This document shows, piece by piece, positions 2,691 to 40,918 of a stretch of 64,000 nucleotides of DNA. A model generated the notes under the pieces. That model searched no databases and was not told the DNA's origin. It saw only the letters and a program-made list of their open reading frames with translations. Made by a program: the position numbers and the translations under genes. Positions within the stretch are counted from its first letter, which is position 1; every line of letters begins with the position of its first letter. Origin of the DNA: Anaerolineales bacterium UBA6092 (lineage in GTDB: Bacteria; Chloroflexota; Anaerolineae; Anaerolineales; UBA4823); the NCBI GenBank assembly GCA_002428565.1, contig DIXA01000058.1, positions 51,570-115,569 of the forward strand. Direction: 5' to 3'.

Positions 2691-2733
2691 GCAGGGTGTT
2701 TTGTGCGTGCTTTGCACGCACAAAACACCCTGC
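2691..2733. repeat. 43-bp perfect palindrome (20-bp arms, 3-nt centre)
   Basis: GCAGGGTGTTTTGTGCGTGC-TTT-GCACGCACAAAACACCCTGC has no mismatch. It has no flanking T-run, so it is not a classical terminator. It lies between the tRNA and the first gene of the signalling cluster. Confidence 0.8.
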
Positions 2734-2866
2734 ACCCCAAGTTGTCGAGAAGTTGCTCTTTTTTGGATAAGTTTGCTAAAATCAGGGGGATGGGAAAGAA
2801 TATTGCAATTTCATGACCAATCCTTGCGATTTGCAACGGGGATGTCATGCGAAGAATCGACGCCCG

Positions 2867-2875
2867 TGCTAAAAT
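2867..2875 (+). promoter_or_regulatory. Candidate extended -10 element (TGCTAAAAT) upstream of the signalling cluster
   Basis: TGnTAAAAT lies 33 nt upstream of ATG 2908 in an AT-richer intergenic stretch. The -35 is weak (TGCGAA, 16-nt spacer). This is a motif match only. Confidence 0.2.
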
Positions 2876-2907
2876 GGATAGATATAGTGCCAAAAAAGGG
2901 TGAAAGA

Positions 2908-3773: not shown

Positions 3774-5975
3774 ATGCCCACACAAGAGAAATGCCCTTTT
3801 TGCAACCAGCCCATTGAACCAGAAGTAGAAACTTGCCCTCACTGCGGAAAGATGATCTTGGCTATCCCCGCGGGTGAGGTCCCCCCTTCCTCGATCGATC
3901 GACAATTTACCCCCGAAATGTTGGTGCACCGCCTGGGTGATTACCTGTTAGAGAGCGGTGTGATCAAGAAGAAAGATCTGAATCGGGCGTTGGAGTACCA
4001 GAAGGAACTGGCCCCTCAGCGGCATGTTTTGCTGGGCCAGGCTCTGTTGGAATTGGGGCTGGTGGACCGCGACACGCTGGACCAGGCTATCACCCGGCAG
4101 CTGCTCTCGCTGCAAAACGCGTTGATGGAGACCAACCGCCAGCTCGAAGACCGGGTGACACAGCGCACCAAAGACCTGGAGCGGCGGCTGGTGCAGATCC
4201 GCACCGCGGCAGATATCACTCAGTTGGCCATCTCGGCCTCCAGCCTGAGCGAGCTTTTACGCCGGGCGGTGGATCTGATCGTGGAGCGCTTTGAATACTA
4301 CCTGGCCTCCATTTTCGTGGTCGATGAGACCGGCGAGAATGCACTTCTTGCCGAAGCCAGCGGCAAAGCCGATAAGGATTTGATGTCGAAGGGAGTAAAG
4401 ATCGCAGCGGGCTCGCGCTCGATGGTGGGCTGGGTGCTGGTGCACCGCAAGCCGCGCGTGGCGGCAGAAGTGGACGACGATTACTTCTACCTCTCCAGCG
4501 ATCAATTGCACGAAACCCGCTCGGAGGTGTGCATACCGATCATGATGGGGGAGAACCTGCTGGGCGTGCTGGATGTGCAGCACAGCGTTACCAATGCCTT
4601 TGACCCCGACGCGGTGGCGGTGTTGCAGATCATTGCCAACCATATCGCCTCGGTGATGCAGAGTTTCCGCTTGCTAGAGACAACGCGCTCCAGCCTGAGC
4701 GAATTATCTTCGCTGTACTATGCCAGTTACCAGTTGGCCCGGGCAGAGAAGTTGGAAGATGTGACCAACGTGGTCACCACTCTCTTGGAGCAGTCGCCTT
4801 ATTTTGCCATGTTCCTGTTGCCCAAGCGCAACAACATGCAGGTGCTGGCGGCTTATACGCCAGGCTTGCCCGAATGGGGATTGAGCAGCAAGCCGCCGCA
4901 GTATCCCGAATCGCTGGAAGTGTTGCCGGCAGATATCAACCAGCTTTTTGCGCAGAAGGATGGCGGCCCGGTTACCACCACCCCTGGTGAGCCCTACCTG
5001 ATCCTCCACTCGATCGCCGATACGGAGCAGCCTGTGGTTGTGCCAGAGGCGCTGTTAGGCTTCCTGCGCCAGGCGGGTTACCAATCTGTGGCCCTCATCC
5101 CCAGCCGCCGCTCGGGTACGCTGGATACCCTGGTGCTGCTGGCGACGCCGCAAGTCACGGGCTTTTCCAACGGGGTTTTACAAGCCTATGCCAGTCTGGC
5201 AGAGCTTTCTGCCACCGCCCTGGAAAAGGTGCGCGCCTCACAGCGCATGCTCAAGCAAATGAATGCTCTGGCCACGCTGAACACGATCAGCCAGGCGGTT
5301 TCGGTTGAGACCGACCTGCAAACCCTGTACCAGGTGATCCATCGCGAAGTGATCGGGGTGATGGGCAACGTCAACTTCGCCATCGCCATTTACGATAAAG
5401 ACGCCGATACCATCACCGTCCCCTATATGTTTGATGGTAAAGATGTGAAAAACGTGCCGGCTTTCCCCCTGGGCGAGGGGATGACCTCGATCTTGATCCG
5501 TACCCGCAAATCGTTGATGCTGGTGGAAGATACCGAGCGCAAGACCCGCGAACTGGGCGCCAAGCTGGTGGGCAAGCCGGCCAAATCCTGGCTGGGCGTG
5601 CCGCTGCTGGTGGCTGGCGATGTGCTGGGGGCCATCCTGGCGCAAGACCTGGAACGCGAGGGGCGCTTTGACGAGGACGATCAGCGCTTGATGGAGACCC
5701 TGGCCTCGCAGGTAGCCGTGGCGGTGCGCAATGCCCGCCTGCTGGAAAGCACTTACCGGCAGGCCGAGCGCGAACGCCTGTTGTATGACATCACCAATAA
5801 GATCCGTTTCTCACCCGATATCGCCCATATCCTGGAGACGACCACCCGCGAACTGAGCCATGCTTTGGGTACGCGGCGGGCAACCATTCAACTGGGTCTG
5901 ACGCCCGACCAGCCGCCCCAGCCACCCGCAGAGACCCCTCCTCCCAACCAGCCGACCTCTGCCAGCAGTTCGTAG
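3774..5975 (+). CDS. Cytoplasmic zinc-ribbon / MshEN-like / S-helix / triple-GAF protein with the shared C-terminal tail; no output domain
   Basis: Domain order: CPFC...CPHC ribbon; RLGDYLLESGVIKKKDLNRALEYQ (MshEN-type motif); coiled coil with QRTKDLERRLVQIRTAA; A-type GAF (RFEYYLASIFVVDE...LLGVLDVQHSVTNAF); C-type GAF-like (LYYASYQLA...); B-type GAF (FAIAIYDKDADTITVPYMF...SWLGVPLLVAGDVLGAILAQD); tail ERERLLYDITNKIRFSPDIAHILETTTRELSHALG. No hydrophobic helices. Confidence 0.85.
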   Translation: MPTQEKCPFCNQPIEPEVETCPHCGKMILAIPAGEVPPSSIDRQFTPEMLVHRLGDYLLESGVIKKKDLNRALEYQKELAPQRHVLLGQALLELGLVDRDTLDQAITRQLLSLQNALMETNRQLEDRVTQRTKDLERRLVQIRTAADITQLAISASSLSELLRRAVDLIVERFEYYLASIFVVDETGENALLAEASGKADKDLMSKGVKIAAGSRSMVGWVLVHRKPRVAAEVDDDYFYLSSDQLHETRSEVCIPIMMGENLLGVLDVQHSVTNAFDPDAVAVLQIIANHIASVMQSFRLLETTRSSLSELSSLYYASYQLARAEKLEDVTNVVTTLLEQSPYFAMFLLPKRNNMQVLAAYTPGLPEWGLSSKPPQYPESLEVLPADINQLFAQKDGGPVTTTPGEPYLILHSIADTEQPVVVPEALLGFLRQAGYQSVALIPSRRSGTLDTLVLLATPQVTGFSNGVLQAYASLAELSATALEKVRASQRMLKQMNALATLNTISQAVSVETDLQTLYQVIHREVIGVMGNVNFAIAIYDKDADTITVPYMFDGKDVKNVPAFPLGEGMTSILIRTRKSLMLVEDTERKTRELGAKLVGKPAKSWLGVPLLVAGDVLGAILAQDLEREGRFDEDDQRLMETLASQVAVAVRNARLLESTYRQAERERLLYDITNKIRFSPDIAHILETTTRELSHALGTRRATIQLGLTPDQPPQPPAETPPPNQPTSASSS

Positions 5976-5987
5976 CAGGAGTAGCGT

Positions 5988-7688
5988 ATGAAGCGTTCAT
6001 TCTACCGCCGACAGGTACCCCCCAGCCGCCAGGTTGCTGTTGAAGAAAAGAAAAGCAGCCTGGAAGAATTGCGCTTGCGTATCATGAACGTGATGCTTTA
6101 CGGGGCAGTCACCGTGGGGCTGATCGCGGTCATTTCAAACCTGATGACGGATATTCCCCAGGGCAACTGGGGGGTGATTGCGGTCTACGCGGTGGCCTAT
6201 GCTGGGCTGCTGGCGGTCACCTTTTTCCGGCGGTTGCCGTTTGACGTGCGAGCGTATGGTTTGACGCTGCTGCCATATCTTTTGGGCGTGACCGCGGCGG
6301 TGCAAGATGGCATTGCCGGGAACGGGCGGGTGTGGATGCTGCTTTCGGCCGGGTTGGCCAGCATCTTGTTGGGGCCGAGGGTGGGGGTTGGGTATCTGCT
6401 CTTGGGCACAGCCACGCTGCTGGGCATTGGCGGGGCGTTCAGCCAGGGCTGGCTGCCGCTCCCCGATGAGGCGTTGATCCCCTCGGCGGCACATTTTTCA
6501 GATTGGCTGGGAACCGGCTCGGTGTTCCTGCTGACGGCCTTCACTATTGGCGTCTCGCTGAGCGTGTTGATCCGCGGCCTGGATACAAGCCTGCAGAAAG
6601 AGCAGGCTTTAGCCAGCAGCCTGGCTTTTGACCAGCAGCAACTGGATGACCGCACACATGAACTGGACCGCCGCCTGGTGCAGATCCGCACTGCGGCGGA
6701 GATTTCCCGCACCCTCAGCGGCGTGTTGGACCCAAATCTGCTGCTACAACAAGTGGTGGACCTGGTGCGCCAGCGTTTCAGCCTGTATTACGTGGCTGCC
6801 TTCCTTATTGATGATCTTGGCGAATACGCCGTGCTGCGGGCGGGCACGGGCGAGGCTGGCTCGAAGATGATCGCCGCAGGTCACCGCCTGCCGGTTGGCG
6901 GGGCCTCGATGATCGGCTGGACGATTGCGAACCGGCGGCCGCGCATTGCCCTGGATGTGGGCCAAGACGCGGTGCGCTTTAGCAACCCGCTGCTGCCGCA
7001 GACGCGCTCTGAGATGGCCCTGCCTCTGGTCAGCGGCGAGCAGGTCTTTGGGGCGCTCTCCATCCAATCGGTGCAGGCTGAGGCCTTCGACGAAGATGAT
7101 GTGGCGGTTTTGCAGGGCATTGCCGATAGTCTGGCAACCGCCCTGCAGAACGCGCGCTTATTCCAGCAGTCGGCGCAAAGCCTGGATGAGATCCGAGCGC
7201 TGAACCGCCAGTATGTGGCCGATGCATGGAAGGAAATCTCGCAGCAGCCGGGGGTATCTCAGGCCAGCCATGAGAATGAACTATACAGTGGGTCGGTGGA
7301 AGGCTTGCGTGTGTTGCCGGTGCCGCTGACCCTGCGCGATCAGGTGATCGGTCAGTTGCTGTTGGAAACGGATCGAACCACTCTCACACCGGAAGAGCTG
7401 AACTTTATCGAACAGGTGACCACCCAGGCTGCCCTGGCGATGGAAAACGTGCGCCTGCTTGAGGAGACCCAGCGACGCGCCGGGGAAGAGCGGCTGTTGG
7501 TGGATGTGGTACAGAAAGCGCGTTCCTCTGCGGACATTGAATCGATCTTGCGCATCACCATCAAAGAGCTGAGCAGTGCCTTAGGCGCCTCGGAGAGCGA
7601 AATTTACCTGGCGCCTGCTTACGCACTGCAGGAGCAGCCCGGCGGCAATGGCTACCAGGACGGGGCGGAGGGAGGTGAAGAGGCATGA
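5988..7688 (+). CDS. Membrane (about 5-6 TM) S-helix-GAF receptor, no HAMP and no output domain
   Basis: The N-terminal 200 aa are hydrophobic helices. Then come the coiled coil DRTHELDRRLVQIRTAAEISR, an A-type GAF (RFSLYYVAAFLIDDLGEYAVLRAGTGEAG...VFGALSIQSVQAEAF), the half-GAF LPVPLTLRDQVIGQLLLE...TPEELNFIEQV...ENVRLLEE, and the tail GEERLLVDVVQKARSSADIESILRITIKELSSALG. Confidence 0.85.
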   Translation: MKRSFYRRQVPPSRQVAVEEKKSSLEELRLRIMNVMLYGAVTVGLIAVISNLMTDIPQGNWGVIAVYAVAYAGLLAVTFFRRLPFDVRAYGLTLLPYLLGVTAAVQDGIAGNGRVWMLLSAGLASILLGPRVGVGYLLLGTATLLGIGGAFSQGWLPLPDEALIPSAAHFSDWLGTGSVFLLTAFTIGVSLSVLIRGLDTSLQKEQALASSLAFDQQQLDDRTHELDRRLVQIRTAAEISRTLSGVLDPNLLLQQVVDLVRQRFSLYYVAAFLIDDLGEYAVLRAGTGEAGSKMIAAGHRLPVGGASMIGWTIANRRPRIALDVGQDAVRFSNPLLPQTRSEMALPLVSGEQVFGALSIQSVQAEAFDEDDVAVLQGIADSLATALQNARLFQQSAQSLDEIRALNRQYVADAWKEISQQPGVSQASHENELYSGSVEGLRVLPVPLTLRDQVIGQLLLETDRTTLTPEELNFIEQVTTQAALAMENVRLLEETQRRAGEERLLVDVVQKARSSADIESILRITIKELSSALGASESEIYLAPAYALQEQPGGNGYQDGAEGGEEA

Positions 7689-9628
7689 GCATTCGCACAC
7701 GCTTGGTGCTGACTCTGGTTTTGGTCGGCCTCATTCCGCTCTTGATCACGATTGTGTACGCCAGCCAGTCCATGAATGAAATGGTCTCGCAGGCTGAAGT
7801 GACCACCCGAGAAGCTCTGGAACTGGCTGCCAGGCAGTCGGTGCGCCAGTCGGCTTACTCGGTGGCGCGGCAGATCCGCCTGTACCTGGATCTGCACCCC
7901 GAGTTGGATGCGAATGATCCGGAGGCATTGCAGGCTGACCCTGGCCTGACCCAGATTGCTGTTCAAGCGGTGGGAAATTCTGGCTACAGCGCGGTTTTCG
8001 ATGAAAACGGCGTCACCCGTTTCCACACCAACGCGGCTCTGGTGGGGCAAGATCTTTCCAGCCTGGCAGAAACGCTGCCCGATTTCTGGGCGATCTACGA
8101 GTCCGCGCTGGATGGCTCTCCGGCAGAGGGCAATTACGATTGGCTGGAGGCAGATGGCACCATCCGCCCCAAATATATGGTTGTTGCGCCCGTGCAAGGC
8201 ACTGCCTTGCGTGTGGCGGCGACAGCATACTTAGATGAGCTCTCGGCGCCAGCGCTTACCGTGGCAGATAAGCTAAGCCTATTGTCTGGCGATTCGAACC
8301 TGCGCTTGTGGTCAATTGGCCTGGTGAGCACTGTGGTGGCTGCGGGGCTGGCGGTGTATATTGGCACCCGCCTCGCCCAGCCTTTGGCCAAGATGGCCGC
8401 GGCTGCGGAGCGGGTCGCCGAGGGCGATTGGGAGTCCATCCGCCCGCTGCCCGAGCGCACCGAACTGGGCGCGCTCAGCCGTTCTCTGTATACGATGACC
8501 AATCAACTGCGCAGCACGCAGGAAAACCTGGAGAAGCAGGTGAGCACCCGCACCAAAGAATTGACCCGCCGCACCAGCCAGCTGGAAGCGGCCGCAGAAG
8601 TGGCCCGCGAAGCCTCTGCCATCCGGGATATGAGCCGCTTGCTCAACCAGGTGGTTAACCTGGTGGCTGAGCGCTTCGATGTGTATCACGTGGGCATCTT
8701 TTTGGTGGACGAAGCCCGCGAATTTGTGGTGCTGAATGCCGCCAACAGCGAAGGCGGGCGGAAGATGCTGGAGCGCGAGTATAAACTACGGCTGGGTGGA
8801 GAAGGAATGGTGGGCTGGGTGGCCAAGGCCGGCCAGCCGCGCATCGCTTTTGATGTGGGCGCCGACCAGCACTTCGTCCGTGACCCAGAACTGCCCCAAA
8901 CCCGTTCTGAAGCCACGCTGGCCCTGCGCATCCGTGAGCGGGTGATTGGCGTGCTGGATGTGCAATCGTTGCAGGCTTCGGCATTCACCCCAGATGACCT
9001 GGGCGTGCTGCAGATTGTGGCTGACCAGATTGCCCTGGCGGTGGAGAATGCCCGCCTCTTCGAATCCAGCCAGCAGGCCCTGCAGGCGATGAACCGCCTG
9101 TACAGCCGTGAGTCGCAAGATGCCTGGCAGAAACGCCTGGGCGATCGTCCCGTGGCGTTTCGCTACACGCGCATGGGCACCCAGATGATGACCCCTCAGG
9201 ATTCTCGCCAGGAATTGGCGGAGACCAGCCAGGTGCGCACCGACCCGGCAAGCGGCATGCATGAACTGCTGGTGCCGGTGGCCTTCCGCGGCCAGGTGAT
9301 GGGCCAATTGAAGTTGCGCCGGGATGCCGACCAGATGGCCTGGACCGCCGCGGATATGGATATTGTGGAGCAGGCGGTGGCGCAGATCGTTCCGGCGCTG
9401 GAGAATGCCCGCTTGCTGGAGGAAGTGCAATCCAGAGCAGCGCGCGAGCAAATGGTGAACGTGATCACCGGCCGGGTGCGCAGCTCTATTACCATGGAAA
9501 CGATCTTGCAGAACGCCGTGCGCGAACTGGGTATGGCTTTGGGGGCGTCTCGCACCTTCGTTCAAATCGGTTTAGACCAAGAATTGGCAGATCAGAACCC
9601 AGAAGGAGGCTTGGATGAAAGCAAATAA
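7685..9628 (+). CDS. TM-periplasmic(Cache-like)-TM-HAMP-S-helix-GAF receptor, no output domain
   Basis: ATGA overlap with the upstream gene. Two TM helices flank a roughly 190-aa extracytoplasmic domain. HAMP (PLAKMAAAAERVAEGDW...LGALSRSLYTMTNQL); S-helix VSTRTKELTRRTSQLEAAAEV; A-type GAF (RFDVYHVGIFLVDEAREFVVLNAANSEGG...VIGVLDVQSLQASAF); half-GAF with AWTAADMDIVEQ; tail AAREQMVNVITGRVRSSITMETILQNAVRELGMALG. Confidence 0.87.
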   Translation: MSIRTRLVLTLVLVGLIPLLITIVYASQSMNEMVSQAEVTTREALELAARQSVRQSAYSVARQIRLYLDLHPELDANDPEALQADPGLTQIAVQAVGNSGYSAVFDENGVTRFHTNAALVGQDLSSLAETLPDFWAIYESALDGSPAEGNYDWLEADGTIRPKYMVVAPVQGTALRVAATAYLDELSAPALTVADKLSLLSGDSNLRLWSIGLVSTVVAAGLAVYIGTRLAQPLAKMAAAAERVAEGDWESIRPLPERTELGALSRSLYTMTNQLRSTQENLEKQVSTRTKELTRRTSQLEAAAEVAREASAIRDMSRLLNQVVNLVAERFDVYHVGIFLVDEAREFVVLNAANSEGGRKMLEREYKLRLGGEGMVGWVAKAGQPRIAFDVGADQHFVRDPELPQTRSEATLALRIRERVIGVLDVQSLQASAFTPDDLGVLQIVADQIALAVENARLFESSQQALQAMNRLYSRESQDAWQKRLGDRPVAFRYTRMGTQMMTPQDSRQELAETSQVRTDPASGMHELLVPVAFRGQVMGQLKLRRDADQMAWTAADMDIVEQAVAQIVPALENARLLEEVQSRAAREQMVNVITGRVRSSITMETILQNAVRELGMALGASRTFVQIGLDQELADQNPEGGLDESK

Positions 9629-10631
9629 GTGGCTTGGGATTTTCTTAGTGTTGGTGATGGTGGCTGGCCTGGCGGCAGGTTGCAAGACTACACCAGAGGC
9701 CACCGCCGTCGCGCCAGATCAGGTCACCTTGCGGCTGCAGTGGGTGACCCAGGCGCAGTTTGCCGGTTACTATGTTGCCCTGGACAAGGGCTGGTACGCC
9801 GATGAGGGGATCGACTTGACGATTAAACCGGGCGGCCCCGATCTGATCACCACCGACCTGGTGGTGAATGGCACCGACGATTTTGGCACCGCCCTGCTGG
9901 CAGATATTATTGCTGCCATCCAATCGGGCAAACCGTTGGTTAGCATCAGCCAGATCCAGCAGAGCAACGGTTTGATGCTGCTGGCGATGAAATCTTCAGG
10001 CATTGAAGGGCCACAAGATTTCGTTGGCCACAGCGTGGGTGTGTGGCTGGGCAACTGGGAAGCTCAGTTCGATGCGCTGATGTTCAAGGAAGGCATTGGC
10101 GCGGAAGATTACCAACTCGTTTCACAGGGCTTCAGCATGGATGCCTTCATCTCCGGCGAGCTGGATGTGGCCTCGGCGATGATCTACAACGAGTATTACA
10201 GCGTGCTGGAAAGCGGCATCAGCGCGGAGGATATCAACATCATCGACTATGCGGATTACGGGCTGGATTTCCCCGGCGACACCCTGTTCACCTCTACCCG
10301 GTTGGCCGAAGAGAACCCCGACCTGTGTGCCCGCATGGTGCGCGCCAGCCTGCGCGGTTGGCAGTACGCCGTGGAGAACCCCGACGAAGCGGCAGATATT
10401 GTGCTCAAGTACGATACAAGCGGCGCGCAGACCATTGCCCACCAGCGCTCCATGATGTATGAGATCGCCAAACTGGTGCAGGTTTCGGTGCGCCCGCTGG
10501 GGTACACCGACCGGGATAGTGTCCGCCGCACCATTGATACCTTATTCAACTATGGCGTTTTGAGCAGCCCCATCGAGCCAGATACGGTCTTCAACAACAC
10601 GTTCTGGGAGCAGGCGCAGGTGCAACCATAA
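9615..10631 (+). CDS. Solute-binding lipoprotein, NMT1/THI5 (SsuA/TauA/ThiY-like) family; orphan (no ABC permease or ATPase nearby)
   Basis: AAGGAGG lies 5 nt upstream of ATG 9615. Lipobox LAAGC. LRLQWVTQAQFAGYYVALDKGWYADEGIDLTIKPGGPD is typical of the family. The start lies 14 nt inside the upstream receptor gene. Confidence 0.8.
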   Translation: MKANKWLGIFLVLVMVAGLAAGCKTTPEATAVAPDQVTLRLQWVTQAQFAGYYVALDKGWYADEGIDLTIKPGGPDLITTDLVVNGTDDFGTALLADIIAAIQSGKPLVSISQIQQSNGLMLLAMKSSGIEGPQDFVGHSVGVWLGNWEAQFDALMFKEGIGAEDYQLVSQGFSMDAFISGELDVASAMIYNEYYSVLESGISAEDINIIDYADYGLDFPGDTLFTSTRLAEENPDLCARMVRASLRGWQYAVENPDEAADIVLKYDTSGAQTIAHQRSMMYEIAKLVQVSVRPLGYTDRDSVRRTIDTLFNYGVLSSPIEPDTVFNNTFWEQAQVQP

Positions 10632-10664
10632 AGATGATTTCTTGGGTCAGGAAGGTGTAGCGCA

Positions 10665-13097: not shown

Positions 13098-13110
13098 ATT
13101 TGGGAATCTT

Positions 13111-18841: not shown

Positions 18842-18906
18842 TGTACGCAGCCCGTTGAGTGGTGCCCCAAACTTACACCACGGGCTGCAAACAGGAAGAT
18901 GAACCT

Positions 18907-20433: not shown

Positions 20434-20492
20434 GGAGTTGCCCGTGAAGAGACAAGTTGTGGATCTCATTTGTGCAAGGGACGGAGGCGCGT

Positions 20493-23917: not shown

Positions 23918-23989
23918 AGGACCTTTCTCCTGGTATCTCTTGCACGATGGAGATACGGGAGGCGTAGGAACTGATCGAGGAATAGACCT

Positions 23990-26272
23990 ATGAAATTGCG
24001 CACTCGAAGCCTGGTGGCCCGAATCGTGGGTTACTTCTTACTTTTGTCGTTGATTGCGACAACCATTGTGCCAGTGGCAAGTTTCTTCCTGGCGCGGCAA
24101 GCGCTGCAGCGCTCTGTTTTTGAGCGCCTGGAGGTGGCGGCTACGCTCAAGGAAAATGAGCTGAACCGCTGGGTTGAAGATAACCAGGCTGATATCCTGT
24201 TCATTGCCCAATCGCCAGAGTTTAGCAGCCAGGCCTGGCGCCTGCTGACCGTCAGCGAAACCTCGCCAGAATACCGCGTGGCGTATTCGGCCCTCTCCAA
24301 CTACCTGGCTTCGCTGCTGGGCAATAAAACCAACTTGCTGGAAGTGTTTATTATGACGGCAAAGGGCGGCCAGGTGGTGCTCTCTACCGATAAGACGCGG
24401 GAGGGTGATTACCGGGCGACCGATACCTATTATACGCAAGGCCGCCTGGGCACTTACGTTCAGAATGTGTACACCTCTCCGGTCACCGGCAAACCCACCA
24501 TGACCATCTCCACGCCGTTGTTCGACCCAACTACAAACAGCCTGGCGGGAGTATTGGCGGCGCACTTGAACCTGGAGCGGTTAGACAGTATTATCCTGGA
24601 ACGCGCCGGCTTAGGCGAAACGGGCGAAACTTACCTGGTGAGCCAGTACGGCTCCTTTGTTTCTGAAGCGCGCTTCGCCGGCGAAGAATTCGCCCGCGGG
24701 GTACATACCGAAGGTATTGACCAGGCGTTGGAAGGGATGGATGGCTTTGGTACCTACGAGAACTACCAGGGAACGCCGGTCTTGGGCGTTTACCGCTGGC
24801 TGGACGAGCGCAGCCTGGCGCTGGTGGCAGAGATCTCGCAGGAGGAGGCCTATGCCCCGGCAGCGCGCCTGGCGGGGACGATCTTCCTGCTGAGCCTGGT
24901 TTCGGCGGGCCTTCTGGCAGGGGGGGCTTACCTGGTTGCCCGACAGATTGCCCGGCCTATTCTGGCGATCAACGAAGTGGCTGGTTATGTGGCCAAGGGC
25001 GATTTGAGCCACCAGGCAGTTGTGCTGACTCAGGATGAAATTGGCACCCTGGCTACTACTTTCAACGAAATGACCCGGCAGTTGCGCGAACAGTTGGCCG
25101 GCCTGGAAGAGCGCGTGGGTGAGCGCACACGTGAATTGCAGCGCCGGGCTGTGCAATTGCAAGCCGCGGCCGAGGTGGGCAGCGCGGTGGCAAGCGTGCG
25201 TGACCTGAGCCGATTGCTGCAAGATGTGACCCATTTGATCAGTGAGCGGTTTGGCTACTATCACGTCGGCATCTTCTTGATCGACGAAAGCGGAACCGAG
25301 GCGGTGCTGCGGGCAGCCAACAGCCCTGGCGGTTTGCAGATGTTGGCCCGCGGCCATAGGCTAAAGGTGGGGCAGAAAGGCATTGTGGGCTATGTCACCG
25401 GGCAGCAGAAACCGCGCATCGCCATGGATGTGGGGCAGGATGCTGTGTATTTCGATAACCCCGACCTGCCCGAGACGCGCTCTGAGATGGCCTTGCCTTT
25501 AGTGGCTGGCGGGCAGTTGTTGGGTGTGCTGGATGTGCAGAGCAAGGAAGAGATGGCTTTTAGCCAGGAAGATATCGAGACGCTGCAGGTGCTGGCAGAC
25601 CAGGTGGCGGTGGCAATTGAAAATGCCAACCTGTTCAGCGAGACGCAGGCAGCGCTGGATGCCTCTCGCCGGGCGTATGGCGAGATCAGCCGCCAGGCCT
25701 GGGGTAAGATCCTGGCGGTCCGACCAGATTTGGGCTACTTGTGCGACCGCCGCGGCCGCACCAAGCCGGCCAGCGGGAAGTGGTCTGGCGAGCTGGCTGC
25801 CGCGCAGACCTCGGGCAGGGTGACCCAGGTGGAAGACCGCACCGTGATCGTACCTTTCAAGGTGCATGGGCAAACCCTGGGGGTGGCGCGGCTGCGCAAA
25901 CCGGAGGATGCTGGTGAATGGACCAAGAAGGAAATTGACTTGATGGAGTCATTGGCCAGTAACCTGGGCGAATCATTGGAAAGCGCGCAGTTGTACAACG
26001 ACTCGCAGCGACGGGCGGTGCGTGAGCAGCTCGTTGGCGAAGTGACCTCGGCCATGCGCGAGAGCCTGGATGTGGACACGGTGCTGCGCACTGCCGCACA
26101 GCAGATCCGGCGGGCGCTGAACCTGGCCACGGTGGAAGTGCGTCTGGGCGCTTCTGTTAGCGAGGCAGCGCCAGGCGACGAAAGTTCTGGCGAGGTGAGT
26201 GAACCAACGCAAGACCCAATGACTGCCCCCGGTGAGGCGGACTTGCCTGAAGCGGATGGGAGGCTCGCATGA
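23990..26272 (+). CDS. TM-dCache-TM-HAMP-S-helix-GAF receptor, no output domain
   Basis: Cache block (GETGETYLVSQYGSFVSEARF...VLGVYRWLDERSLALVAEI); HAMP (IGTLATTFNEMTRQL); VGERTRELQRRAVQLQAAAEV; A-type GAF (RFGYYHVGIFLIDESGTEAVLRAANSPGG...LLGVLDVQSKEEMAF); half-GAF (EWTKKEIDLMESLASNLGESLESAQLY); tail VREQLVGEVTSAMRESLDVDTVLRTAAQQIRRALN. Confidence 0.87.
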   Translation: MKLRTRSLVARIVGYFLLLSLIATTIVPVASFFLARQALQRSVFERLEVAATLKENELNRWVEDNQADILFIAQSPEFSSQAWRLLTVSETSPEYRVAYSALSNYLASLLGNKTNLLEVFIMTAKGGQVVLSTDKTREGDYRATDTYYTQGRLGTYVQNVYTSPVTGKPTMTISTPLFDPTTNSLAGVLAAHLNLERLDSIILERAGLGETGETYLVSQYGSFVSEARFAGEEFARGVHTEGIDQALEGMDGFGTYENYQGTPVLGVYRWLDERSLALVAEISQEEAYAPAARLAGTIFLLSLVSAGLLAGGAYLVARQIARPILAINEVAGYVAKGDLSHQAVVLTQDEIGTLATTFNEMTRQLREQLAGLEERVGERTRELQRRAVQLQAAAEVGSAVASVRDLSRLLQDVTHLISERFGYYHVGIFLIDESGTEAVLRAANSPGGLQMLARGHRLKVGQKGIVGYVTGQQKPRIAMDVGQDAVYFDNPDLPETRSEMALPLVAGGQLLGVLDVQSKEEMAFSQEDIETLQVLADQVAVAIENANLFSETQAALDASRRAYGEISRQAWGKILAVRPDLGYLCDRRGRTKPASGKWSGELAAAQTSGRVTQVEDRTVIVPFKVHGQTLGVARLRKPEDAGEWTKKEIDLMESLASNLGESLESAQLYNDSQRRAVREQLVGEVTSAMRESLDVDTVLRTAAQQIRRALNLATVEVRLGASVSEAAPGDESSGEVSEPTQDPMTAPGEADLPEADGRLA

Positions 26273-29076
26273 CACCATTCCGGCGTTTGACACTATTTGC
26301 AGGCCTGGGCGATGTGCTGTTGCTGGCAACAGCGGCGGGATTGTATTTCTACTTCGGCCAGACCTCCTACTTGATCTTGGCGGGCCTGGTGGCTGCTCTC
26401 CTGGCATCTAAACTGATCGGCTATACGGTGGCGCGCTCTACGGGTCGTGAAGAACTTGGCCTGCTCATCTACAGCCTGGCGTACAGCCTGATTATTGCAT
26501 TGCCGGTGTTGTGGTTCACAGATTATTGGTGGGTGGGCCTGATCATAGGAGTCTTGCTGACCATGCTGCCCTGGTTGGGCGGTCAGCCCAGGCTTGCGGT
26601 TCCGCTGGTGCTGCTGGCTTTGTTCAGCACGGCGTTGATGCTGGTATTGGATATCTGGCTGATTGGGGGCGAGCGGATGAACCTGGTTCGCAACCCCTGG
26701 CTGGCAGTGTTGATGGCGGTGGGCTATGTGGCGCTGGTGCTGCTGCCTGGCTTGTTCAGTTCCACCCGCCTCGGCGAGGAAAAAACGGGCGTGTTCCCCC
26801 GTCTGTTGTCATGGTTCTTGGGTGTGGCGGTGATCGCAGCCGTGGTGGTGATGGTGGTGATCTTGTGGCAGGCAAACCGTCTGCAAGTGGAACAGAGCGG
26901 GGTGCAAAACCTGCGCCTGGCAAACCAGCAGGCGGAACGAGCAGGCAACCTGCTGGAAGAGCGGTTGGCCACGCTGCAATTACTTTGGCATTCCGCCACG
27001 GTGGTAAACGGCATCAATGCAGCAAACACCTATTATGGGTATACGATTGCCAGCCCAGAAACCCGGATGGATTTACGAGCAAGAAACACAGAATGGCAGA
27101 CGGCAGCCGTCAACAGCGAGCTGGTACGGCAGTATCTTCTTAACGAGGAAACCCAGGCGCTGACGCGTTTTGTCAACGCCCACCCCGAATACCTCACCCT
27201 GATCGTAACAGACAAGTTGGGCGGGTTGGTGGCGGCGACGGGCGGCAAGCCGGAGCTTTTCTTCTACGGTGATGAGGCCTGGTGGCAGGCCGCCATGCAA
27301 GGCGCCGACGGTGCTTATGTGGGAAACCTGGCATACGACGAAAAATCAGGTACCTACACCGTGCTGATCGCCATAACGGTGAAAGATCCCTCCACGGTGG
27401 GCGAGGGCGCCAGCCCCAACCAGGGCGCGGTGGTGGGCCTGCTGGCCTCCACGCTTGACCTTCGCCCGATCCAGTTGGGCTTGCAGGATCGCCCGGCTGG
27501 TTTTAGCGGGCAGCTGGGCTTGATCAGTCCCGACGGGCAAGTGCTGGCAGGGGCAGATCTTGCCGCGGTGCAGGCAGCCTGGGACGAACTTCCCGCCTCA
27601 GCGTTTTTGGTGGATCAGACCTCGACCTGGGGTTTCATCTCTGGCATCCTGGGTGAACGGGTGATGATCGCACACTCTCCATTAAAGACCACCAGCGGCG
27701 ATTATCTCACCGTGCTGAAGAACCTGGGCTGGCAGATGGTGGCATTCCAGAGCGAGAACAGCATCCTGGCTGGATTGAACCAGATCATGCAGATTGCCAC
27801 CCTGGCTGCCGTGGCGGCGCTGGCACTGGCAGTATGGGCTTCCTGGCGGGCGGCTGCGCAAATTCGTAAGCCCATCTCTGCGCTGACCGATACCGTGCAG
27901 ACGGTGACCCAGGGAAACCTGGACCAGCATCTGCCGCCGGGCGGGCTGGTGGAATGGAACCAGCTTTCGGACACCTTCAACCAGATGCTGACCCGCTTGC
28001 AGCAAACCCTGGCGGACAAGGATCGCCAGGTGGCTGCCAGTGCCGAAGTGTTGGAAGAGCGCACGCGGCAGATCCAGGCGGCGGCAGAGGTAGGCCGGTC
28101 GGCGGCCTCGATCTTGAATGCGGATGAGTTGATCCAAGAAGTGGTGGGATTTATCCGCAGCCGTTTCAACCTGTACTATGTGGGCTTGTTCCTGGTAGAT
28201 GAAACCGGCGAGTGGGCAATGCTGCGAGCCGGAACGGGCGAGGCCGGCAAGATCATGCAGGCGCGCGGGCACCGCATCCGGGTGGGGCAGGGTATGATCG
28301 GCTGGAGCATTGCCAACCAGTTGGCGCGCGTGGCTGGTGAGGCTGGCGCCGATGCGGTGCGCCTGGCTACCGCCGAGCTGCCCGAGACGCGTGCGGAGGC
28401 GGCGCTGCCTCTGATCTCGCGCGGTCGTGTGATTGGCGCGCTGACGGTGCAAAGCGGGCAAGAAGGCTTCTTTACCGAGTCTACGGTGGTTGTGCTGCAG
28501 ACCATGGCAGATCAGGTGGCAGTGGCGTTGGATAACGCCCGCCTGTTTGCCGAGAGCCAGTTGGCTTTGGATGCCCTGCGCCGCTCTTACGGCGAAGTCA
28601 GTGGCCGAGAATGGGTGGGTATGATGCGCACCCGGCAGATTCCTGGGTATTCTAGCGACGAGCGCGGTGTTTATCCGGTGAAAGAGGATGCCACCGCCGG
28701 CAGCAAGGGTGCAAAGAAAGGCGATCTGGAGATCCCGGTGAAGGTGCGCGATCAGGTTTTGGGCATGCTGACGGCAGCCAAGCCGAAGGGAGGCAGCGAA
28801 TGGAGCGAAGAGGAAGTGGCGCTGTTAGAAACTTTGGCCGGCGAATTGAGCGTGGCGCTGGAGAATGCCCGTCTTTATGAGAGCACCCAACGCCGTGCGG
28901 AACGCGAGCGCGTGCTGGCAGATATTACTGCCAAGGTGCGCTCTTCGACCGATATCAACGTGATCCTGCAAACGGCCATCCAGGAACTGGCCGATGCGCT
29001 GCGCGTCTCTCGCGGCAAGATCGAGCTGCACCAGGCAGACATCGACGGTGAGAACGGAGGCAACACGGATGATTGA
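26269..29076 (+). CDS. Multi-TM-Cache-TM-HAMP-S-helix-GAF receptor, no output domain
   Basis: ATGA overlap with the upstream gene. About 6 N-terminal TM helices. Extracytoplasmic domain of about 330 aa. HAMP-like (QIRKPISALTDTVQTVTQGNLD...LSDTFNQMLTRL); A-type GAF (RFNLYYVGLFLVDETGEWAMLRAGTGEAG...VIGALTVQSGQEGFF); half-GAF (EWSEEEVALLETLAGELSVALENARLY); tail ERERVLADITAKVRSSTDINVILQTAIQELADALR. Confidence 0.86.
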   Translation: MTPFRRLTLFAGLGDVLLLATAAGLYFYFGQTSYLILAGLVAALLASKLIGYTVARSTGREELGLLIYSLAYSLIIALPVLWFTDYWWVGLIIGVLLTMLPWLGGQPRLAVPLVLLALFSTALMLVLDIWLIGGERMNLVRNPWLAVLMAVGYVALVLLPGLFSSTRLGEEKTGVFPRLLSWFLGVAVIAAVVVMVVILWQANRLQVEQSGVQNLRLANQQAERAGNLLEERLATLQLLWHSATVVNGINAANTYYGYTIASPETRMDLRARNTEWQTAAVNSELVRQYLLNEETQALTRFVNAHPEYLTLIVTDKLGGLVAATGGKPELFFYGDEAWWQAAMQGADGAYVGNLAYDEKSGTYTVLIAITVKDPSTVGEGASPNQGAVVGLLASTLDLRPIQLGLQDRPAGFSGQLGLISPDGQVLAGADLAAVQAAWDELPASAFLVDQTSTWGFISGILGERVMIAHSPLKTTSGDYLTVLKNLGWQMVAFQSENSILAGLNQIMQIATLAAVAALALAVWASWRAAAQIRKPISALTDTVQTVTQGNLDQHLPPGGLVEWNQLSDTFNQMLTRLQQTLADKDRQVAASAEVLEERTRQIQAAAEVGRSAASILNADELIQEVVGFIRSRFNLYYVGLFLVDETGEWAMLRAGTGEAGKIMQARGHRIRVGQGMIGWSIANQLARVAGEAGADAVRLATAELPETRAEAALPLISRGRVIGALTVQSGQEGFFTESTVVVLQTMADQVAVALDNARLFAESQLALDALRRSYGEVSGREWVGMMRTRQIPGYSSDERGVYPVKEDATAGSKGAKKGDLEIPVKVRDQVLGMLTAAKPKGGSEWSEEEVALLETLAGELSVALENARLYESTQRRAERERVLADITAKVRSSTDINVILQTAIQELADALRVSRGKIELHQADIDGENGGNTDD

Positions 29077-31945
29077 AATACAAGAACTCACCCGTAAGAA
29101 AAATAAGTCCAGCCTGGCCGCGTTGCGCGACCGGCTTCAGAGTGCTCTGTCAGACCAGCGGAGAAACGCCTGGTGGGTTATGGGCGGGGTCATTGCATTA
29201 GCCACCATTGCGCTGATGGTTTATTTGTATGTGGCTTTACAGAACAACGTATGGCAGTACTATGGCCTGGTGGGGGCGGCGCTGTTGCTGATCGTGGCTT
29301 GTGTGGCTGGCATCTTGCTTTCTCGTCGCGGCCAGACGATACGGGGCATCTGGTTAATGCTGTTCCTGGGGGTGGTCGCTCTGGCAATCAGCCCGTTGTT
29401 TGTTGCAAACGTGGGCATCTGGTATGCTGGTGTGATCGTTCTGTCAACACTTGTCGTTAGCACGTTATGCCTGCCTTCGCGGCAGGGGAACTGGGCCAAC
29501 CTGTTAGGCGTACTGGGTGGCATCGGCGCCTTACTGAGCGATAGCTTTTTGGATGTTTTTCAGGTTGCTTCGCCTGCGCTGCTGCTGTATCTATTGTACT
29601 TTTTAATGGGTTTCATGGCGGTGGGTTACCTTTTTACCCTGGTTGTTTTCTTCACAACCTTTGACTTGCGGGCCAAGATCACGGTGACCATGTTTTCAAC
29701 AGCCGTGCTCTCGATCATCGCAGTATCTGTCATCAATAATATTACTACCCGCCGGGAATTGGTAAGTGCGGTGAACCAGACTTTGCTGGTGGCAGCGAAT
29801 TACACGGCTCGCAATGTGGATGAGTACCTTGATGAAATCGCCCTCCAGATGGGCATGGACGCGCTTTCACCATACTTGTCGGATCACCTTGCCTTGTTGG
29901 AAGAAGAGCAAATAGAACAGCAACAGACTGCTAGCATCTTCATGCTCTCGCTGCGCTCGCGCACGGGCGCGCAGCAATATGTGCTTCTGGATCGCAGTGG
30001 GAAGGTGGTGCTGCACACGCAGTACAGCAACCATGCAGATGTTGCGCAGCTGCCCGTTTACCTGGGATTGAGCGATGCAGACCGGAACACGTTTCTGATC
30101 TCGGTCCTTTCGGGTGTGCCTTTCTACTCGTCGGTGATCTTCCCTGATCAGGGTGAGCCGTATTTCTATGTTGGCCAGCGCATTTTGGATGCGGATAAAA
30201 AACCAGCAGGCCTGCTGATGGCCAGTTATCCGCTTGCGGCTGTGCAGACGTTAGTGAGGGAGAGCAAAGGCCTGGCAGGCGAGGGGTCGTATGGTGTGCT
30301 GCTGAGCGGTGATTATCTGCGCATCGCTCAGAGTGGTTCGCAAGAGGGGCTTTATCAACTGGTCGTTCCGCTTTCTGATGCGGAGATGGAGAAGATGAAG
30401 GCCAGCCACGATCTGCCCAATAGGCCCCTGGAGGAATTGGCCACCGATTTTCCGGAGTTCAAAGCCGGCCTGGATAACATCACTTCCACACCTTTCTTTG
30501 CCTCGCGCGAGGTTGGGACAGGGGATGACGTGAACTCGATGGCGGTGCTGCGGCTGGAATCACAGGGATGGCTGATGGTGTTCATGCAGCCGCAGTCGAT
30601 CATCCTGCGCCCGGTGGAGGATCAAACACGCACGATCGTGCTCTTTGCTTCGATTATAGCCGGGTTGACGGTGCTGACCGCCACGGGGCTGGCACAGCTC
30701 CTTTCGCGGCCGATTGTGCGCCTGACGGGTGTGGCTGAAAAGGCTGCCGCAGGCGACTGGAGCCAGGAGGCCGAAGCCCAAGGTCAGGATGAGATCGGCA
30801 AGCTGGCCAATGCCTTCAATATCATGACCGGTCAATTGCGGCAGACATTTGAAGAACTGGAAACGCGCGTCGATCAGCGCACCGCCGAACTGGCGCACAC
30901 CTCTGAGCAGATGGAGTATCGTGCTCAGCGCCTGCAAAAAGTGGCCGAGGTGACGCATGTTATTGCTGCTGAGCAAAACCCAGACAAACTGCTCACCCTG
31001 GCAACCCAGACGATCAGTGAACAGTTTGACTATTACCATGTGGGCGTTTTTCTGCTGGATAAGGATGAAGAATATGCCGTGTTGCAGGCGGCGAATTCTG
31101 CCGGCGGGCAGCGCATGCTGGCGCGCGGCCACCGTTTGAAGGTTGGCGAGGTGGGCATTGTGGGGTATGTGACCAAGAAAGGGCAGCCCCGCATCGCTCT
31201 GGATGTGGGCGAGGATGCGGTGTTCTTTGATAACCCCGATCTGCCCCAAACTCGCTCTGAGATTGCCCTGCCGCTGAAGATCGGCTCGCGGGTGATCGGC
31301 GCCCTGGATGTGCAAAGCACCGAATCAGGCGCGTTCAGCGGAGATGATACGGCTTTGCTCTCCACCCTGGCAGACCAGGTGGCTATGGCGATCCAAAACG
31401 CCCGCCTTTTTGGCGAGACACAGCGAGCGCTGCGCGAACTGCAAACTGCCCAACGCCAGTACATCCGCCAGGAATGGATGAGCATGGCAGCAGAGAAGCC
31501 GCAAACCGGCTATCAGTACCTTTTTGGCAACCTGCAGCCGGTGGGCAGCGCGGCAGTGCAGACGCTGGAAGCCGGTGATGATGAAGCTCGGATGATCAGG
31601 TTAGAGGCAGGCGAGGAACCCCTGGAAATCCCCATTTCCCTGCGCGGCCAGGTGATTGGCAACATTCAAATGGGCGGGCCAGAAGACCTGCGCAACTGGA
31701 GCGAAGAAGAGATCCAACTGGCGCAGGCTGTGGCTGACCAGGTGGGCCTGGCGCTGGAAAATGCCCGTCTGCTGGAAGTGACCCAGCGGCGTGCTGAGCG
31801 CGAGCGCACGGTTGCCGAGATCACCACCAAGCTGCGCGCCACCAATGATCCGCAGGCCATCCTCGATGCGGCGGTATCTGAGTTGCGGACGGCCCTGCGC
31901 GCCAAGACAGTGCGGGTGAGCATCCAAAAGAAAGATGGGAGTTGA
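29069..31945 (+). CDS. 7TM-Cache-TM-HAMP-S-helix-GAF receptor, no output domain
   Basis: I chose ATG 29069 (GGAGG 8 nt upstream, 8-nt overlap with the upstream stop); the ORF-track start is 28994. About 7 TM helices. Extracytoplasmic domain. HAMP (IGKLANAFNIMTGQL); VDQRTAELAHTSEQMEYRAQRLQKVAEV; A-type GAF (QFDYYHVGVFLLDKDEEYAVLQAANSAGG...VIGALDVQSTESGAF); half-GAF (NWSEEEIQLAQAVADQVGLALENARLL); tail ERERTVAEITTKLRATNDPQAILDAAVSELRTALR. Confidence 0.87.
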   Translation: MIEIQELTRKKNKSSLAALRDRLQSALSDQRRNAWWVMGGVIALATIALMVYLYVALQNNVWQYYGLVGAALLLIVACVAGILLSRRGQTIRGIWLMLFLGVVALAISPLFVANVGIWYAGVIVLSTLVVSTLCLPSRQGNWANLLGVLGGIGALLSDSFLDVFQVASPALLLYLLYFLMGFMAVGYLFTLVVFFTTFDLRAKITVTMFSTAVLSIIAVSVINNITTRRELVSAVNQTLLVAANYTARNVDEYLDEIALQMGMDALSPYLSDHLALLEEEQIEQQQTASIFMLSLRSRTGAQQYVLLDRSGKVVLHTQYSNHADVAQLPVYLGLSDADRNTFLISVLSGVPFYSSVIFPDQGEPYFYVGQRILDADKKPAGLLMASYPLAAVQTLVRESKGLAGEGSYGVLLSGDYLRIAQSGSQEGLYQLVVPLSDAEMEKMKASHDLPNRPLEELATDFPEFKAGLDNITSTPFFASREVGTGDDVNSMAVLRLESQGWLMVFMQPQSIILRPVEDQTRTIVLFASIIAGLTVLTATGLAQLLSRPIVRLTGVAEKAAAGDWSQEAEAQGQDEIGKLANAFNIMTGQLRQTFEELETRVDQRTAELAHTSEQMEYRAQRLQKVAEVTHVIAAEQNPDKLLTLATQTISEQFDYYHVGVFLLDKDEEYAVLQAANSAGGQRMLARGHRLKVGEVGIVGYVTKKGQPRIALDVGEDAVFFDNPDLPQTRSEIALPLKIGSRVIGALDVQSTESGAFSGDDTALLSTLADQVAMAIQNARLFGETQRALRELQTAQRQYIRQEWMSMAAEKPQTGYQYLFGNLQPVGSAAVQTLEAGDDEARMIRLEAGEEPLEIPISLRGQVIGNIQMGGPEDLRNWSEEEIQLAQAVADQVGLALENARLLEVTQRRAERERTVAEITTKLRATNDPQAILDAAVSELRTALRAKTVRVSIQKKDGS

Positions 31946-32701: not shown

Positions 32702-40918
<8,217 letters not shown>

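Follow-up and report, generated by a model that had tools for sequence, protein, structure and literature searches.

The ten receptor genes at positions 3774-31945 of the window (the whole stretch of DNA analysed, 64,000 nucleotides), all on the + strand, encode proteins that without exception end in the same discrete module of about 50 residues, here termed TAIL. Judged by its alignments, TAIL comprises three elements from the start of a phytochrome/CikA-type GAF domain, namely the linker helix, the first helix and the first strand: it is a GAF fragment and does not extend to a full domain. The histidine kinase encoded downstream of the receptors starts with the last third of such a domain; since the receptors end in its first third, the two may plug together. 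This leads to the tentative proposal, well short of an even chance, of a GAF naturally split between two proteins as plug and socket, by which about ten kinase-less receptors would be joined to one hub histidine kinase in a ParA-positioned many-to-one array made of GAF modules throughout.

The architectures of the receptors were delineated using Pfam, a module map and profile-derived TAIL coordinates. A conserved GAF (A-type) is found in every receptor, C-terminal to the sensor region and, where present, to the HAMP domain, which Pfam detects in eight of the ten; a local profile finds a further module, here termed MID, in nine. The sensor is of the Cache type in seven receptors and a MASE11 membrane domain in one. 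Receptor 1 (3774..5975) lacks a HAMP and combines a zinc ribbon and a GAF with a second complete GAF (~5259-5741), TAIL (5745-5909) and a Pro-rich extension, whereas receptor 2 (5988..7688) shows MASE11, GAF, a degenerate MID (7242-7460; only its C-terminal, Trp-containing W-half is recognised), TAIL (7461-7619) and an acidic extension. Receptor 3 (7685..9628) has a Cache-like sensor, HAMP, GAF, MID (9065-9418) and TAIL (9419-9580), and receptor 4 (10665..13097), with no recognised sensor domain, has HAMP, GAF, MID (11988-12389), an extra complete GAF (~12390-12911) and TAIL (12912-13076). The remaining six share the order dCache, HAMP, GAF, MID and TAIL, the last two modules lying, respectively, at 15451-15813 and 15814-15975 in receptor 5 (13015..16032; start 13015 or 13111), 18245-18616 and 18617-18778 in receptor 6 (16013..18841), 22170-22541 and 22545-22700 in receptor 7 (20457..22730), 25637-25996 and 26000-26155 in receptor 8 (23990..26272), 28549-28878 and 28879-29040 in receptor 9 (26269..29076), and 31415-31774 and 31781-31936 in receptor 10 (28994..31945; start 28994 or 29069). 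None of the ten has a Pfam match to HisKA or HATPase_c, and hence they do not classify as histidine kinases; nor are they methyl-accepting chemotaxis proteins, with MCPsignal unmatched and solely sensor domains, HAMP and GAF recovered by Pfam. Going by this domain content, the receptors are devoid of enzymatic output, and the best explanation is that the ten genes encode dimeric sensor proteins. NCBIfam has no family for them, and we found nothing in the literature on the TAIL module or the cluster.

A TAIL profile built from 121 sequences, all from outside the window, matches the C-termini of all ten receptors at 51-75 bits (E 1e-15 to 1e-23), with 2-38 residues between the match and the stop codon in each, whereas the next-best match in the six frames of the window, an ordinary GAF N-terminus within the hub kinase, reaches 16.5 bits; decoys made by reversing the sequences of 68 loci peak at 14.5 bits. 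This bears out the first-pass annotation, which had reported a C-terminal module common to all ten receptors; the peptides and Trp motifs it quoted are all present in the genes named, while the length of 45 residues it gave has to be raised to about 50. In hhalign comparisons TAIL aligns to columns 2-50 of 200 of a phytochrome-type GAF alignment (prob 98.8, E 1.4e-16, 31% identity) and covers just columns 2-54 of 170 of a second GAF alignment. Together with the AlphaFold2 (AF2) models described below, this upholds the earlier view of a module homologous to the GAF start, with two helices and the first strand, that ends before the second strand. By itself, TAIL has no match to the Pfam GAF profiles PF01590, PF13185 and PF13492.

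Beyond the window, TAIL is found at the C-terminus of 393 of the 408 GAF/MID ORFs from 68 Anaerolineae/Thermoflexales loci (median 69 bits). Ordinary GAF N-termini score below 26 bits against the same profile, and this separation of TAIL as a discrete class speaks for a split GAF. The module in front of TAIL is MID directly in 342 of the 393 and a complete ordinary GAF in 27, and other modules also occur. TAIL is a new and well-defined sequence module, present in hundreds of copies and currently missed by annotation pipelines. Duplications are frequent in the family, which, along with the resemblance of TAIL to a truncation product, might suggest a remnant of a truncated GAF that is functionless today. 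This is hardly credible, as near-invariant A (94%), E (95%) and R (86%) residues and an always identical end point across 393 copies in diverged genomes point to purifying selection. As for the acidic extensions behind TAIL, GNG and GDG, though enriched about 3-4 fold, are restricted to 16/393 and 25/393 tails, respectively, and do not constitute a general short linear motif.

When the segments upstream of TAIL in receptors 6, 8 and 9 were scanned in isolation, the Pfam GAF match covered the C-terminal third of the profile only (positions 63-93 through 128-136), in agreement with the second, weaker GAF matches of the whole-protein scan. The first-pass annotation had taken this module for half a GAF. 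Its residues 2-120, i.e. the whole length of MID, however, align to columns 36-172 of phytochrome-type GAFs (hhalign), and the AF2 model of receptor 8 (residues 544-727) shows a complete compact α/β domain with five strands in the order helix, hairpin, helix, three strands, helix (pLDDT 83), to which Foldseek matches GAF domains only, if weakly (best E 6.7e-3). MID is best described as a reduced GAF without the first helix and first strand; its N-terminal part is both the least confident (pLDDT 68-83) and the least conserved (22% identity among paralogs). That it shares the Trp-containing end of GAFs, as had been observed, holds, including in receptor 3, whose motif had been called degenerate and does possess the Trp (AWTAAD). 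Likewise, a complete GAF lacking the Trp precedes TAIL in receptor 1, as first described; in receptor 4 the TAIL position had been thought to continue into an extra GAF, but there a complete GAF directly precedes TAIL and MID lies one domain further upstream.

The closest known relatives of these modules are the phytochrome/CikA-type GAFs of cyanobacterial multi-GAF sensor kinases (ERE..L..I..RIRxSLDL..IL.TTV.EVR..L..DRV.IYRF ... R.W...E), to whose first 50 columns TAIL corresponds, and with which the Trp motif before the last helix is held in common. They differ in that TAIL is a third of a domain placed at the protein terminus, and that the TAIL family occurs in Chloroflexota, in combination with HAMP and Cache sensors. 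Further, the alignment leaves MID with a gap opposite the bilin-binding pocket of the cyanobacterial GAFs (template columns ~95-113, where the conserved C lies), and TAIL and the W-half are without that region; hence, in these profile alignments none of the modules has the features of a bilin-binding photosensor.

MID (columns 36-172) followed by TAIL (columns 2-50) holds all parts of a phytochrome-type GAF in permuted order, and the two are adjacent in the great majority of receptors, an arrangement that would fit a single circularly permuted GAF within one chain, the first of two options raised initially. We consider this very improbable. The terminal TAIL strand is left as coil outside the sheet in two independent AF2 models, and the last MID helix runs into TAIL as one continuous 46-residue helix (pLDDT ~86-96) that carries the head away from the core. 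The 27 TAILs behind complete GAFs also go against it, as does the presence of MID in tandem, without TAIL, in true sensor kinases of the same genomes such as L021 (GAF-MID-MID-MID-GAF-HK-REC) and L059 (HAMP-GAF-MID-MID-HisKA); moreover, given a downstream core, TAIL pairs with that core in AF2 (see below). The same two kinases provide unsplit versions of the composite order, a point in favor of a split GAF. The window receptors have the HAMP, A-type GAF and MID modules in common with these kinases, as well as the helix motif ENARLL..TQRRA at the exit of the last MID; whereas the kinases go on into DHp and the catalytic domain, the receptors go into TAIL and then stop, the DHp of the kinase paralogs starting at the exact position where TAIL starts.

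This equivalence of position, which also speaks for a split GAF, is among the grounds for an alternative in which TAIL is a self-contained cap: the two helix-turn-helix heads of a receptor dimer would associate into a four-helix bundle against which the short strands pack, and this bundle would terminate and stabilise the signaling coiled coil where the kinase paralogs have their DHp bundle, and the receptors would act on the kinase or another target via the shared A-type GAF, membrane contacts or a ParA-organised cluster. Consistent with this, both TAIL helices are predicted confidently without a partner (pLDDT 79-89), TAIL occurs behind MID, ordinary GAFs and other modules alike, also in clusters with no orphan W-half in view, and its most conserved residues (A7, E10, TQRRA) are located on the linker helix, through which tandem GAF proteins dimerise. 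Nevertheless, we regard it as rather unlikely: the strand pattern V-x-V/I-R-L is strongly conserved (385 copies) even though the strand is predicted to be unpaired in a terminal TAIL, complete phytochrome-type GAFs conserve these residues too, there in contact with the core, and the adjacent kinase starting with exactly the complementary orphan piece is left unexplained. Nor is there a sequence relationship between TAIL and DHp: a resemblance noticed by eye to a pseudo-DHp (an H-box without the His) was dismissed, as the comparison with a DHp alignment built from 11 local kinases reached a prob of 0.3% in hhalign.

The cluster is headed by two single-domain response-regulator genes (2701-3294 and 3287-3751, + strand; Pfam). 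Following the receptors is a ParA/MinD-family ATPase (31942..32748, + strand) with a KGGVAKTT Walker A motif (EKGGVAKTT at residues 11-19), matched by Pfam AAA_31 (1e-47) and also by CbiA, BcsQ and MipZ; every NCBIfam equivalog model scores below its cut-off, and no specific subfamily is therefore assigned. Its 3' end overlaps the start of the hub gene (32702..40918, + strand), which encodes a hybrid histidine kinase according to Pfam, with an orphan W-half, about 12 further GAF domains (12 GAF stretches in Pfam), HisKA (2243-2310), HATPase_c (2358-2472) and two receiver domains (Response_reg). The hub begins with a basic peptide, MSKRKPRSKSVRNRIESLFEDLG (32702..32770, + strand), bearing the motif (R/K)(L/I)xx(L/I)Fx(D/E), which recurs in 61 of 79 hub N-termini, and continues through a variable low-complexity linker to the orphan W-half (32939..33118, + strand). 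This headless piece of a phytochrome-type GAF comprises two strands, the RIWSEDE motif and the last helix, and leads directly into the kinase's own helical GAF spine. It matches positions 65-121 only of the MID profile (46.9 bits, hmmsearch), and the hub N-terminus aligns to GAF columns 119-173 only (prob 96.7, hhalign) with no match to TAIL. Given these distinct coverages, TAIL (columns 2-50) and the hub piece (columns 119-173) are complementary and non-overlapping.

Of the 68 loci in the initial analysis, 17 contain a ParA-like gene, as do L068 and L069. Where a hub kinase directly follows ParA, it begins with an orphan W-half in eight of eight cases (the window, L001, L036, L054, L064, L067, L068 and L069), with anything from one to about 12 GAFs behind it. 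The hub-type N-terminus is seen in a further 73 database proteins; candidate small stand-alone versions were rejected, being short gene calls on long contigs that end in frameshift garbage, at loci where the genes are split. A second type of cluster has a TAIL receptor after ParA, plus either a kinase of the ordinary HAMP-GAF kind or a multi-GAF protein that lacks an orphan W-half. In these, no acceptor W-half is found within 10 kb, despite receptor TAILs that are equally good, which counts against a split GAF; because some clusters show no orphan acceptor, such a coupling may not be general.

A search of 1.84 billion representative sequences with the TAIL profile, in which multi-GAF proteins with many weak matches ranked at the top, uncovered the parent GAF class and also proteins with a double cassette. 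Thirteen representative proteins have an internal TAIL followed 2-43 residues on, across variable linkers of low complexity, by a headless core; in four of these the core is a W-half only, a composition equal to receptor TAIL plus hub W-half. When the tail/W-half/tail segment of one protein (P0001) served as a query for more short-loop fusions, single-cassette proteins were recovered almost exclusively. For a natural protein of the form TAIL-linker-headless core-TAIL, AF2, with an alignment of only 12 sequences across the internal TAIL/core junction, gives a model (pLDDT 86, pTM 0.71) in which the internal TAIL strand (residues 52-58) is a β-strand that joins the sheet (pLDDT ~90) and the terminal TAIL strand is coil. 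Compared with solved structures the model retrieves GAFs (E 9.7e-10; 232 matches at E <= 1e-3), the best being phytochrome and cyanobacteriochrome GAF structures. TAIL and a headless core on one chain are thus predicted to form one GAF, though the variable linkers, and the possibility that the double cassettes represent a duplicated core-TAIL unit, count against a split GAF. This prediction and the headless piece at the start of the neighbouring kinase lend indirect support to the second option of the first-pass annotation, a deliberately incomplete GAF open to complementation in trans.

It is quite possible, if somewhat short of an even chance, that the receptor TAIL and the headless piece of the hub kinase assemble in trans in the same manner. 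They would join into one small GAF-like domain that docks the signaling helix of the receptor onto the kinase spine, a single kinase thereby taking input from many receptors, with the ParA-like ATPase organising or positioning the assembly. Firm ground for this proposal is given by the sequence homologies, by TAIL lying at the C-terminus, by the complementary coverage of the two pieces, by a conserved gene order and by the folding in cis in AF2; from these we infer both the assembly between two proteins and the transmission of the signal by it. Against a split GAF, ten receptor dimers would have to share one acceptor per kinase chain, and among the ten paralogs TAIL is less conserved than the first GAF (36% vs 50% identity). 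The TAILs might instead complement the cores of other receptors, strand or head swapping between dimers giving rise to a higher-order array, perhaps inclusive of the kinase and positioned by ParA. The absence from MID of precisely the head that TAIL supplies, the poorly predicted and divergent N-terminal part of MID, and the many paralogs per cluster alongside a ParA-like gene are compatible with such swapping; but MID is closed in AF2, its tandem arrays without TAIL in real kinases imply that the MID core needs no head, and there is no direct sign of oligomerisation, making this improbable.

Precedents for the trans assembly of receptor TAIL and hub piece are presented by fragment or strand complementation, e.g. 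donor-strand complementation in chaperone-usher pili and engineered split phytochrome reporters, where an incomplete fold in one chain obtains its missing strand or helix from another. The split proposed here would differ in being natural, within a signaling GAF and between receptor and kinase. At the level of the cluster, there are parallels to chemoreceptor arrays, in which kinase-less transmembrane HAMP receptors share one common kinase and are positioned by ParA-like ATPases such as ParC or PpfA: the window likewise has many paralogous receptors with variable sensor domains, a conserved cytoplasmic end and no enzymatic output, together with one kinase and a ParA-like gene, and by analogy the proposed mechanism would follow the many-to-one logic of chemoreceptors sharing CheA. 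Unlike those arrays, the window cluster is without MCPsignal, CheA, CheW, CheB and CheR, its kinase belongs to the HisKA-type hybrid kinases and has a GAF spine, and the coupling is one that we infer.

Whether or not TAIL and hub assemble, TAIL indicates where the output end lies in these HAMP-GAF receptors, a large and conserved but uncharacterised family that has no output domain and is encoded in operon-like clusters alongside one kinase and a ParA-like ATPase. Two-component signaling is usually described as one sensor kinase per signal, and the many-to-one designs known to us are chemotaxis arrays and phosphorelay funnels. Should the GAF head of the receptors and the GAF end of the kinase indeed come together, the principle of coupling would be new, and the wiring of many receptors to one kinase hitherto undescribed; synthetic signaling could copy it as a natural precedent for split-domain wiring, and the Anaerolineae would possess a many-to-one receptor array, analogous to chemoreceptor arrays, built from GAF modules throughout.

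The signaling cluster spans 2.7-43.6 kb of the window with all genes on one strand: two single-domain response regulators are followed by ten receptor genes (3774-31945, + strand; named here by start position), a ParA/MinD-family ATPase (31942-32748), a hybrid histidine kinase of 2738 residues with about 12 GAF domains (the hub kinase; 32702-40918, +) and, finally, a PALP-REC protein and an EamA transporter. The N-terminal parts of the receptors contain a zinc ribbon, MASE11 or Cache-type sensors; Pfam recovers HAMP in eight of the ten, a well conserved GAF is present in all, and an output enzyme was found in none of them. Receptor 1, with an N-terminal zinc ribbon (3774-3860) and no recognizable membrane sensor or HAMP, may be a cytoplasmic member of the set. 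Three interspersed genes encode an NMT1/THI5-like binding protein (9615-10631), an Nramp-family metal transporter (18859-20433) and a Peripla_BP_6 (amino-acid type) binding protein (22727-23917), which may deliver ligands to the adjoining Cache receptors. 3' of the hub kinase (40922-53601, and the related loci L068 and L069 from other genomes), a PALP enzyme, with a receiver domain either fused to it or next to it, and then an EamA transporter keep their order across genomes, and the opposite strand encodes REC-Trans_reg_C, REC-GAF-HK and GAF-GAF-HK proteins; the outputs of the system are likely encoded in this region. Two large downstream genes (43616-48154 and 53845-61335) are also present: one combines a double zinc ribbon and a pair of adenylate/guanylate cyclase domains with an AAA ATPase and TPR repeats, and the other encodes an S8 peptidase of 2496 residues that carries CarboxypepD_reg, DUF4394 and PKD repeats.

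The first-pass annotation had proposed a shared end for all ten receptors, and an alignment of their last 260 residues bears this out with small corrections of detail. The common C-terminal module of about 50 residues (hereafter TAIL) follows the pattern (E/Q)xT(Q)RRAxRE...I(T/S)...R..(S/T).D...(I/V)L..A..E....L......(V/I).(L/I) and precedes a short acidic, Gly-/Pro-rich extension. A profile built from 121 foreign sequences only scores the ten tails at 51-75 bits, as against 16.5 bits for the second-best match in the whole window, an ordinary GAF start within the kinase, and at most 14.5 bits for reversed decoys; judged by sequence, TAIL is a discrete class. Its most conserved positions across 385 copies are T3, Q4, R5, R6, A7 (94%), E10 (95%), R21 (86%), D25, L30, A33, E36 and L41, and the strand V48-R49-L50 is likewise among the best conserved. 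The extensions beyond it (e.g. 7620-7688, 15976-16032 and 29041-29076) have a median of 14 residues and a mean net charge of -2.2, and are rich in E, G, A, P, S and D, with GNG and GDG tripeptides enriched 3-4 fold, in a minority only.

Profile-profile comparisons map TAIL to the first ~50 columns of GAF domains, i.e. the inter-domain helix, first helix and first strand (prob 96.4, E 1.3e-9 against the GAFs of the window). A search of 1.84 billion representative proteins with the TAIL profile recovered 10,748 at E <= 1e-3, the closest complete domains being phytochrome/CikA-type GAFs (cyanobacterial multi-GAF kinases); against an alignment of 29 such GAFs, TAIL 2-50 falls on columns 2-50 of 200 (prob 98.8, E 1.4e-16, 31% identity). 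Because the same GAFs have an R.W...E motif preceding the last helix, the receptors' Trp module and TAIL are pieces of one GAF class. The homology of TAIL is settled. A relationship to the DHp of the local kinases was ruled out (prob 0.3%).

TAIL together with the ~120-residue module upstream of it (hereafter MID) is matched by 514 database proteins, the best 120 of which all end 0-62 residues past a TAIL. In a species-genome scan, every one of the 66 loci recovered belonged to Anaerolineae, Anaerolineales, Thermoflexales or unclassified Chloroflexota MAGs; this is a large family confined to Chloroflexota. Across 68 loci, 395 strong matches lie within 70 residues of a stop codon and 36 are internal, 33 of these scoring below 26 bits as ordinary GAF starts and the remaining three being tails with long extensions. 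TAIL ends 393 of the 408 GAF/MID ORFs that have a stop codon (the others being 8 kinases and 7 fragments); therefore, the tail is not missing from orthologous clusters. Of these 393 tails, 342 are preceded by MID, 27 by a complete GAF and 24 by something else. We found neither a curated NCBIfam model for TAIL nor, in literature searches, a paper describing it. The assemblies behind several related loci (L001, L031, L068, L069) contain many frameshifts that split receptor and kinase genes, resulting in short spurious database proteins, e.g. P0079, P0406 and P0441.

MID is present in nine of the ten receptors, and a complete GAF immediately precedes TAIL in 3774 and 10665. The W(S/T)xxE motif is complete in seven of the nine MIDs, with AWTAAD in 7685 and LTPEEL, which lacks the Trp, in 5988. 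Pfam detects only the last third of MID as GAF, and the module had been read as half a GAF; this reading is not supported, since the entire MID aligns to columns 36-172 of phytochrome-type GAFs (prob 98.1) and occurs in tandem without TAIL in true kinases of related genomes (HAMP-GAF-MID-MID-HisKA and GAF-MID-MID-MID-GAF-HK-REC), with two or three copies directly before the DHp (L059, 10190-13237; L021, 12757-16791). MID is thus a self-contained, general transmission module that appears as a partial GAF to Pfam and is best described as a reduced GAF without the first helix, first strand and most of the pocket.

An AF2 model of receptor 23990 (residues 544-727, 127 sequences; pLDDT 82.8) shows a long helix, a hairpin, a helix, three strands, a single 46-residue helix extending from MID into TAIL, and the second TAIL helix, with the TAIL strand ATVEVRL as coil; Foldseek returned only GAF domains for it, with weak matches (best E 6.7e-3). 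Thirteen representative proteins carry, in order, an internal TAIL, 2-43 variable residues, a head-less core (a GAF without its start) and a terminal TAIL; four have just a W-half, i.e. the end piece of a phytochrome-type GAF, as their core. In the AF2 model of one such double-cassette protein (P0201 619-851, 65 sequences; pLDDT 86.1, pTM 0.71), the internal TAIL strand forms a beta strand (residues 52-58, pLDDT ~90) and the terminal one on the same chain, serving as an internal control, is coil. This model has 232 matches to solved GAFs at E <= 1e-3 (best, the phytochrome GAF-PHY 8w26, 9.7e-10). The paired internal strand and these strong matches lead to the prediction that TAIL and a head-less core form one GAF when on a single chain in the natural head-then-core order. 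The alternative that MID and TAIL together constitute one circularly permuted GAF is disfavored, as the TAIL strand is unpaired in both models of terminal tails, the helix runs unbroken from MID into TAIL, MID is found without TAIL, and TAIL also follows ordinary GAFs. A deliberately incomplete GAF fits TAIL better.

Clusters contain 6-10 receptor genes and a ParA-like gene, with the hub kinase encoded directly after the latter in eight (window, L001, L036, L054, L064, L067, L068, L069). In these its start is constant: a basic peptide, (R/K)(L/I)xx(L/I)Fx(D/E), a variable Pro/Ala-rich linker with a PAS insert in some (two orthologs have a PAS domain there), and an orphan W-half (two strands, RIWSEDE, last helix) leading straight into the GAF spine. 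This W-half is invariably present, and the GAFs behind it vary from one to about twelve: comparing orthologs (window, L001, L036, L064, L068, L069), about twelve precede the DHp in the window, and P0441 and P0436 have one. With a profile of 79 hub N-termini, the match is confined to GAF columns 119-173, and there is none to TAIL, which corresponds to columns 2-50; thus, the receptors end and the kinase starts with pieces of the same GAF type.

A conserved peptide L..(L/I)..LF.D(I/L/V), with a low-complexity Pro/Glu/Ala-rich stretch behind it, starts nearly every protein encoded right after the ParA-like gene, whether hub kinase or TAIL receptor (15 of 17 loci examined: window 32702-32770; L004, L018, L024, L031, L034, L036, L039, L041, L054, L056, L057, L058, L064, L067). 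For L001 and L026, the N-terminus listed lies out of frame or before the start, and the adjacent frame of L001 does encode the peptide. Hub kinases have a basic version of the peptide (MSKKKLRNRIDSLFEDLG) and receptors an acidic one (MSDNDLRDHLSGLFSDI); it may be the partner peptide of the ATPase.

We tentatively infer that the TAILs of the receptors and the hub's orphan W-half might complement each other in trans, the most economical mechanism for the window. Such complementation would connect the signaling helix of a receptor with the kinase spine. The order of the resulting composite, HAMP-GAF-MID-[TAIL+W-half]-GAF...-HisKA, parallels that of unsplit kinases elsewhere, which suggests gene fission followed by receptor duplication. 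The main caveats on trans complementation are the variable linkers of the double-cassette proteins and a second cluster type, where ParA is followed by a TAIL receptor with the same N-terminal LxxLFxD peptide and no acceptor was found within 10 kb, only a HAMP-GAF kinase of the ordinary kind or a multi-GAF protein lacking the orphan W-half. The chief rival, with TAIL as an autonomous helical cap that is dimeric and takes the position of the DHp in kinases, is somewhat less likely. TAIL is a real, sharply defined, widespread and hitherto undescribed C-terminal module of kinase-less HAMP-GAF receptors, and the split-domain hypothesis for its function is specific and testable.
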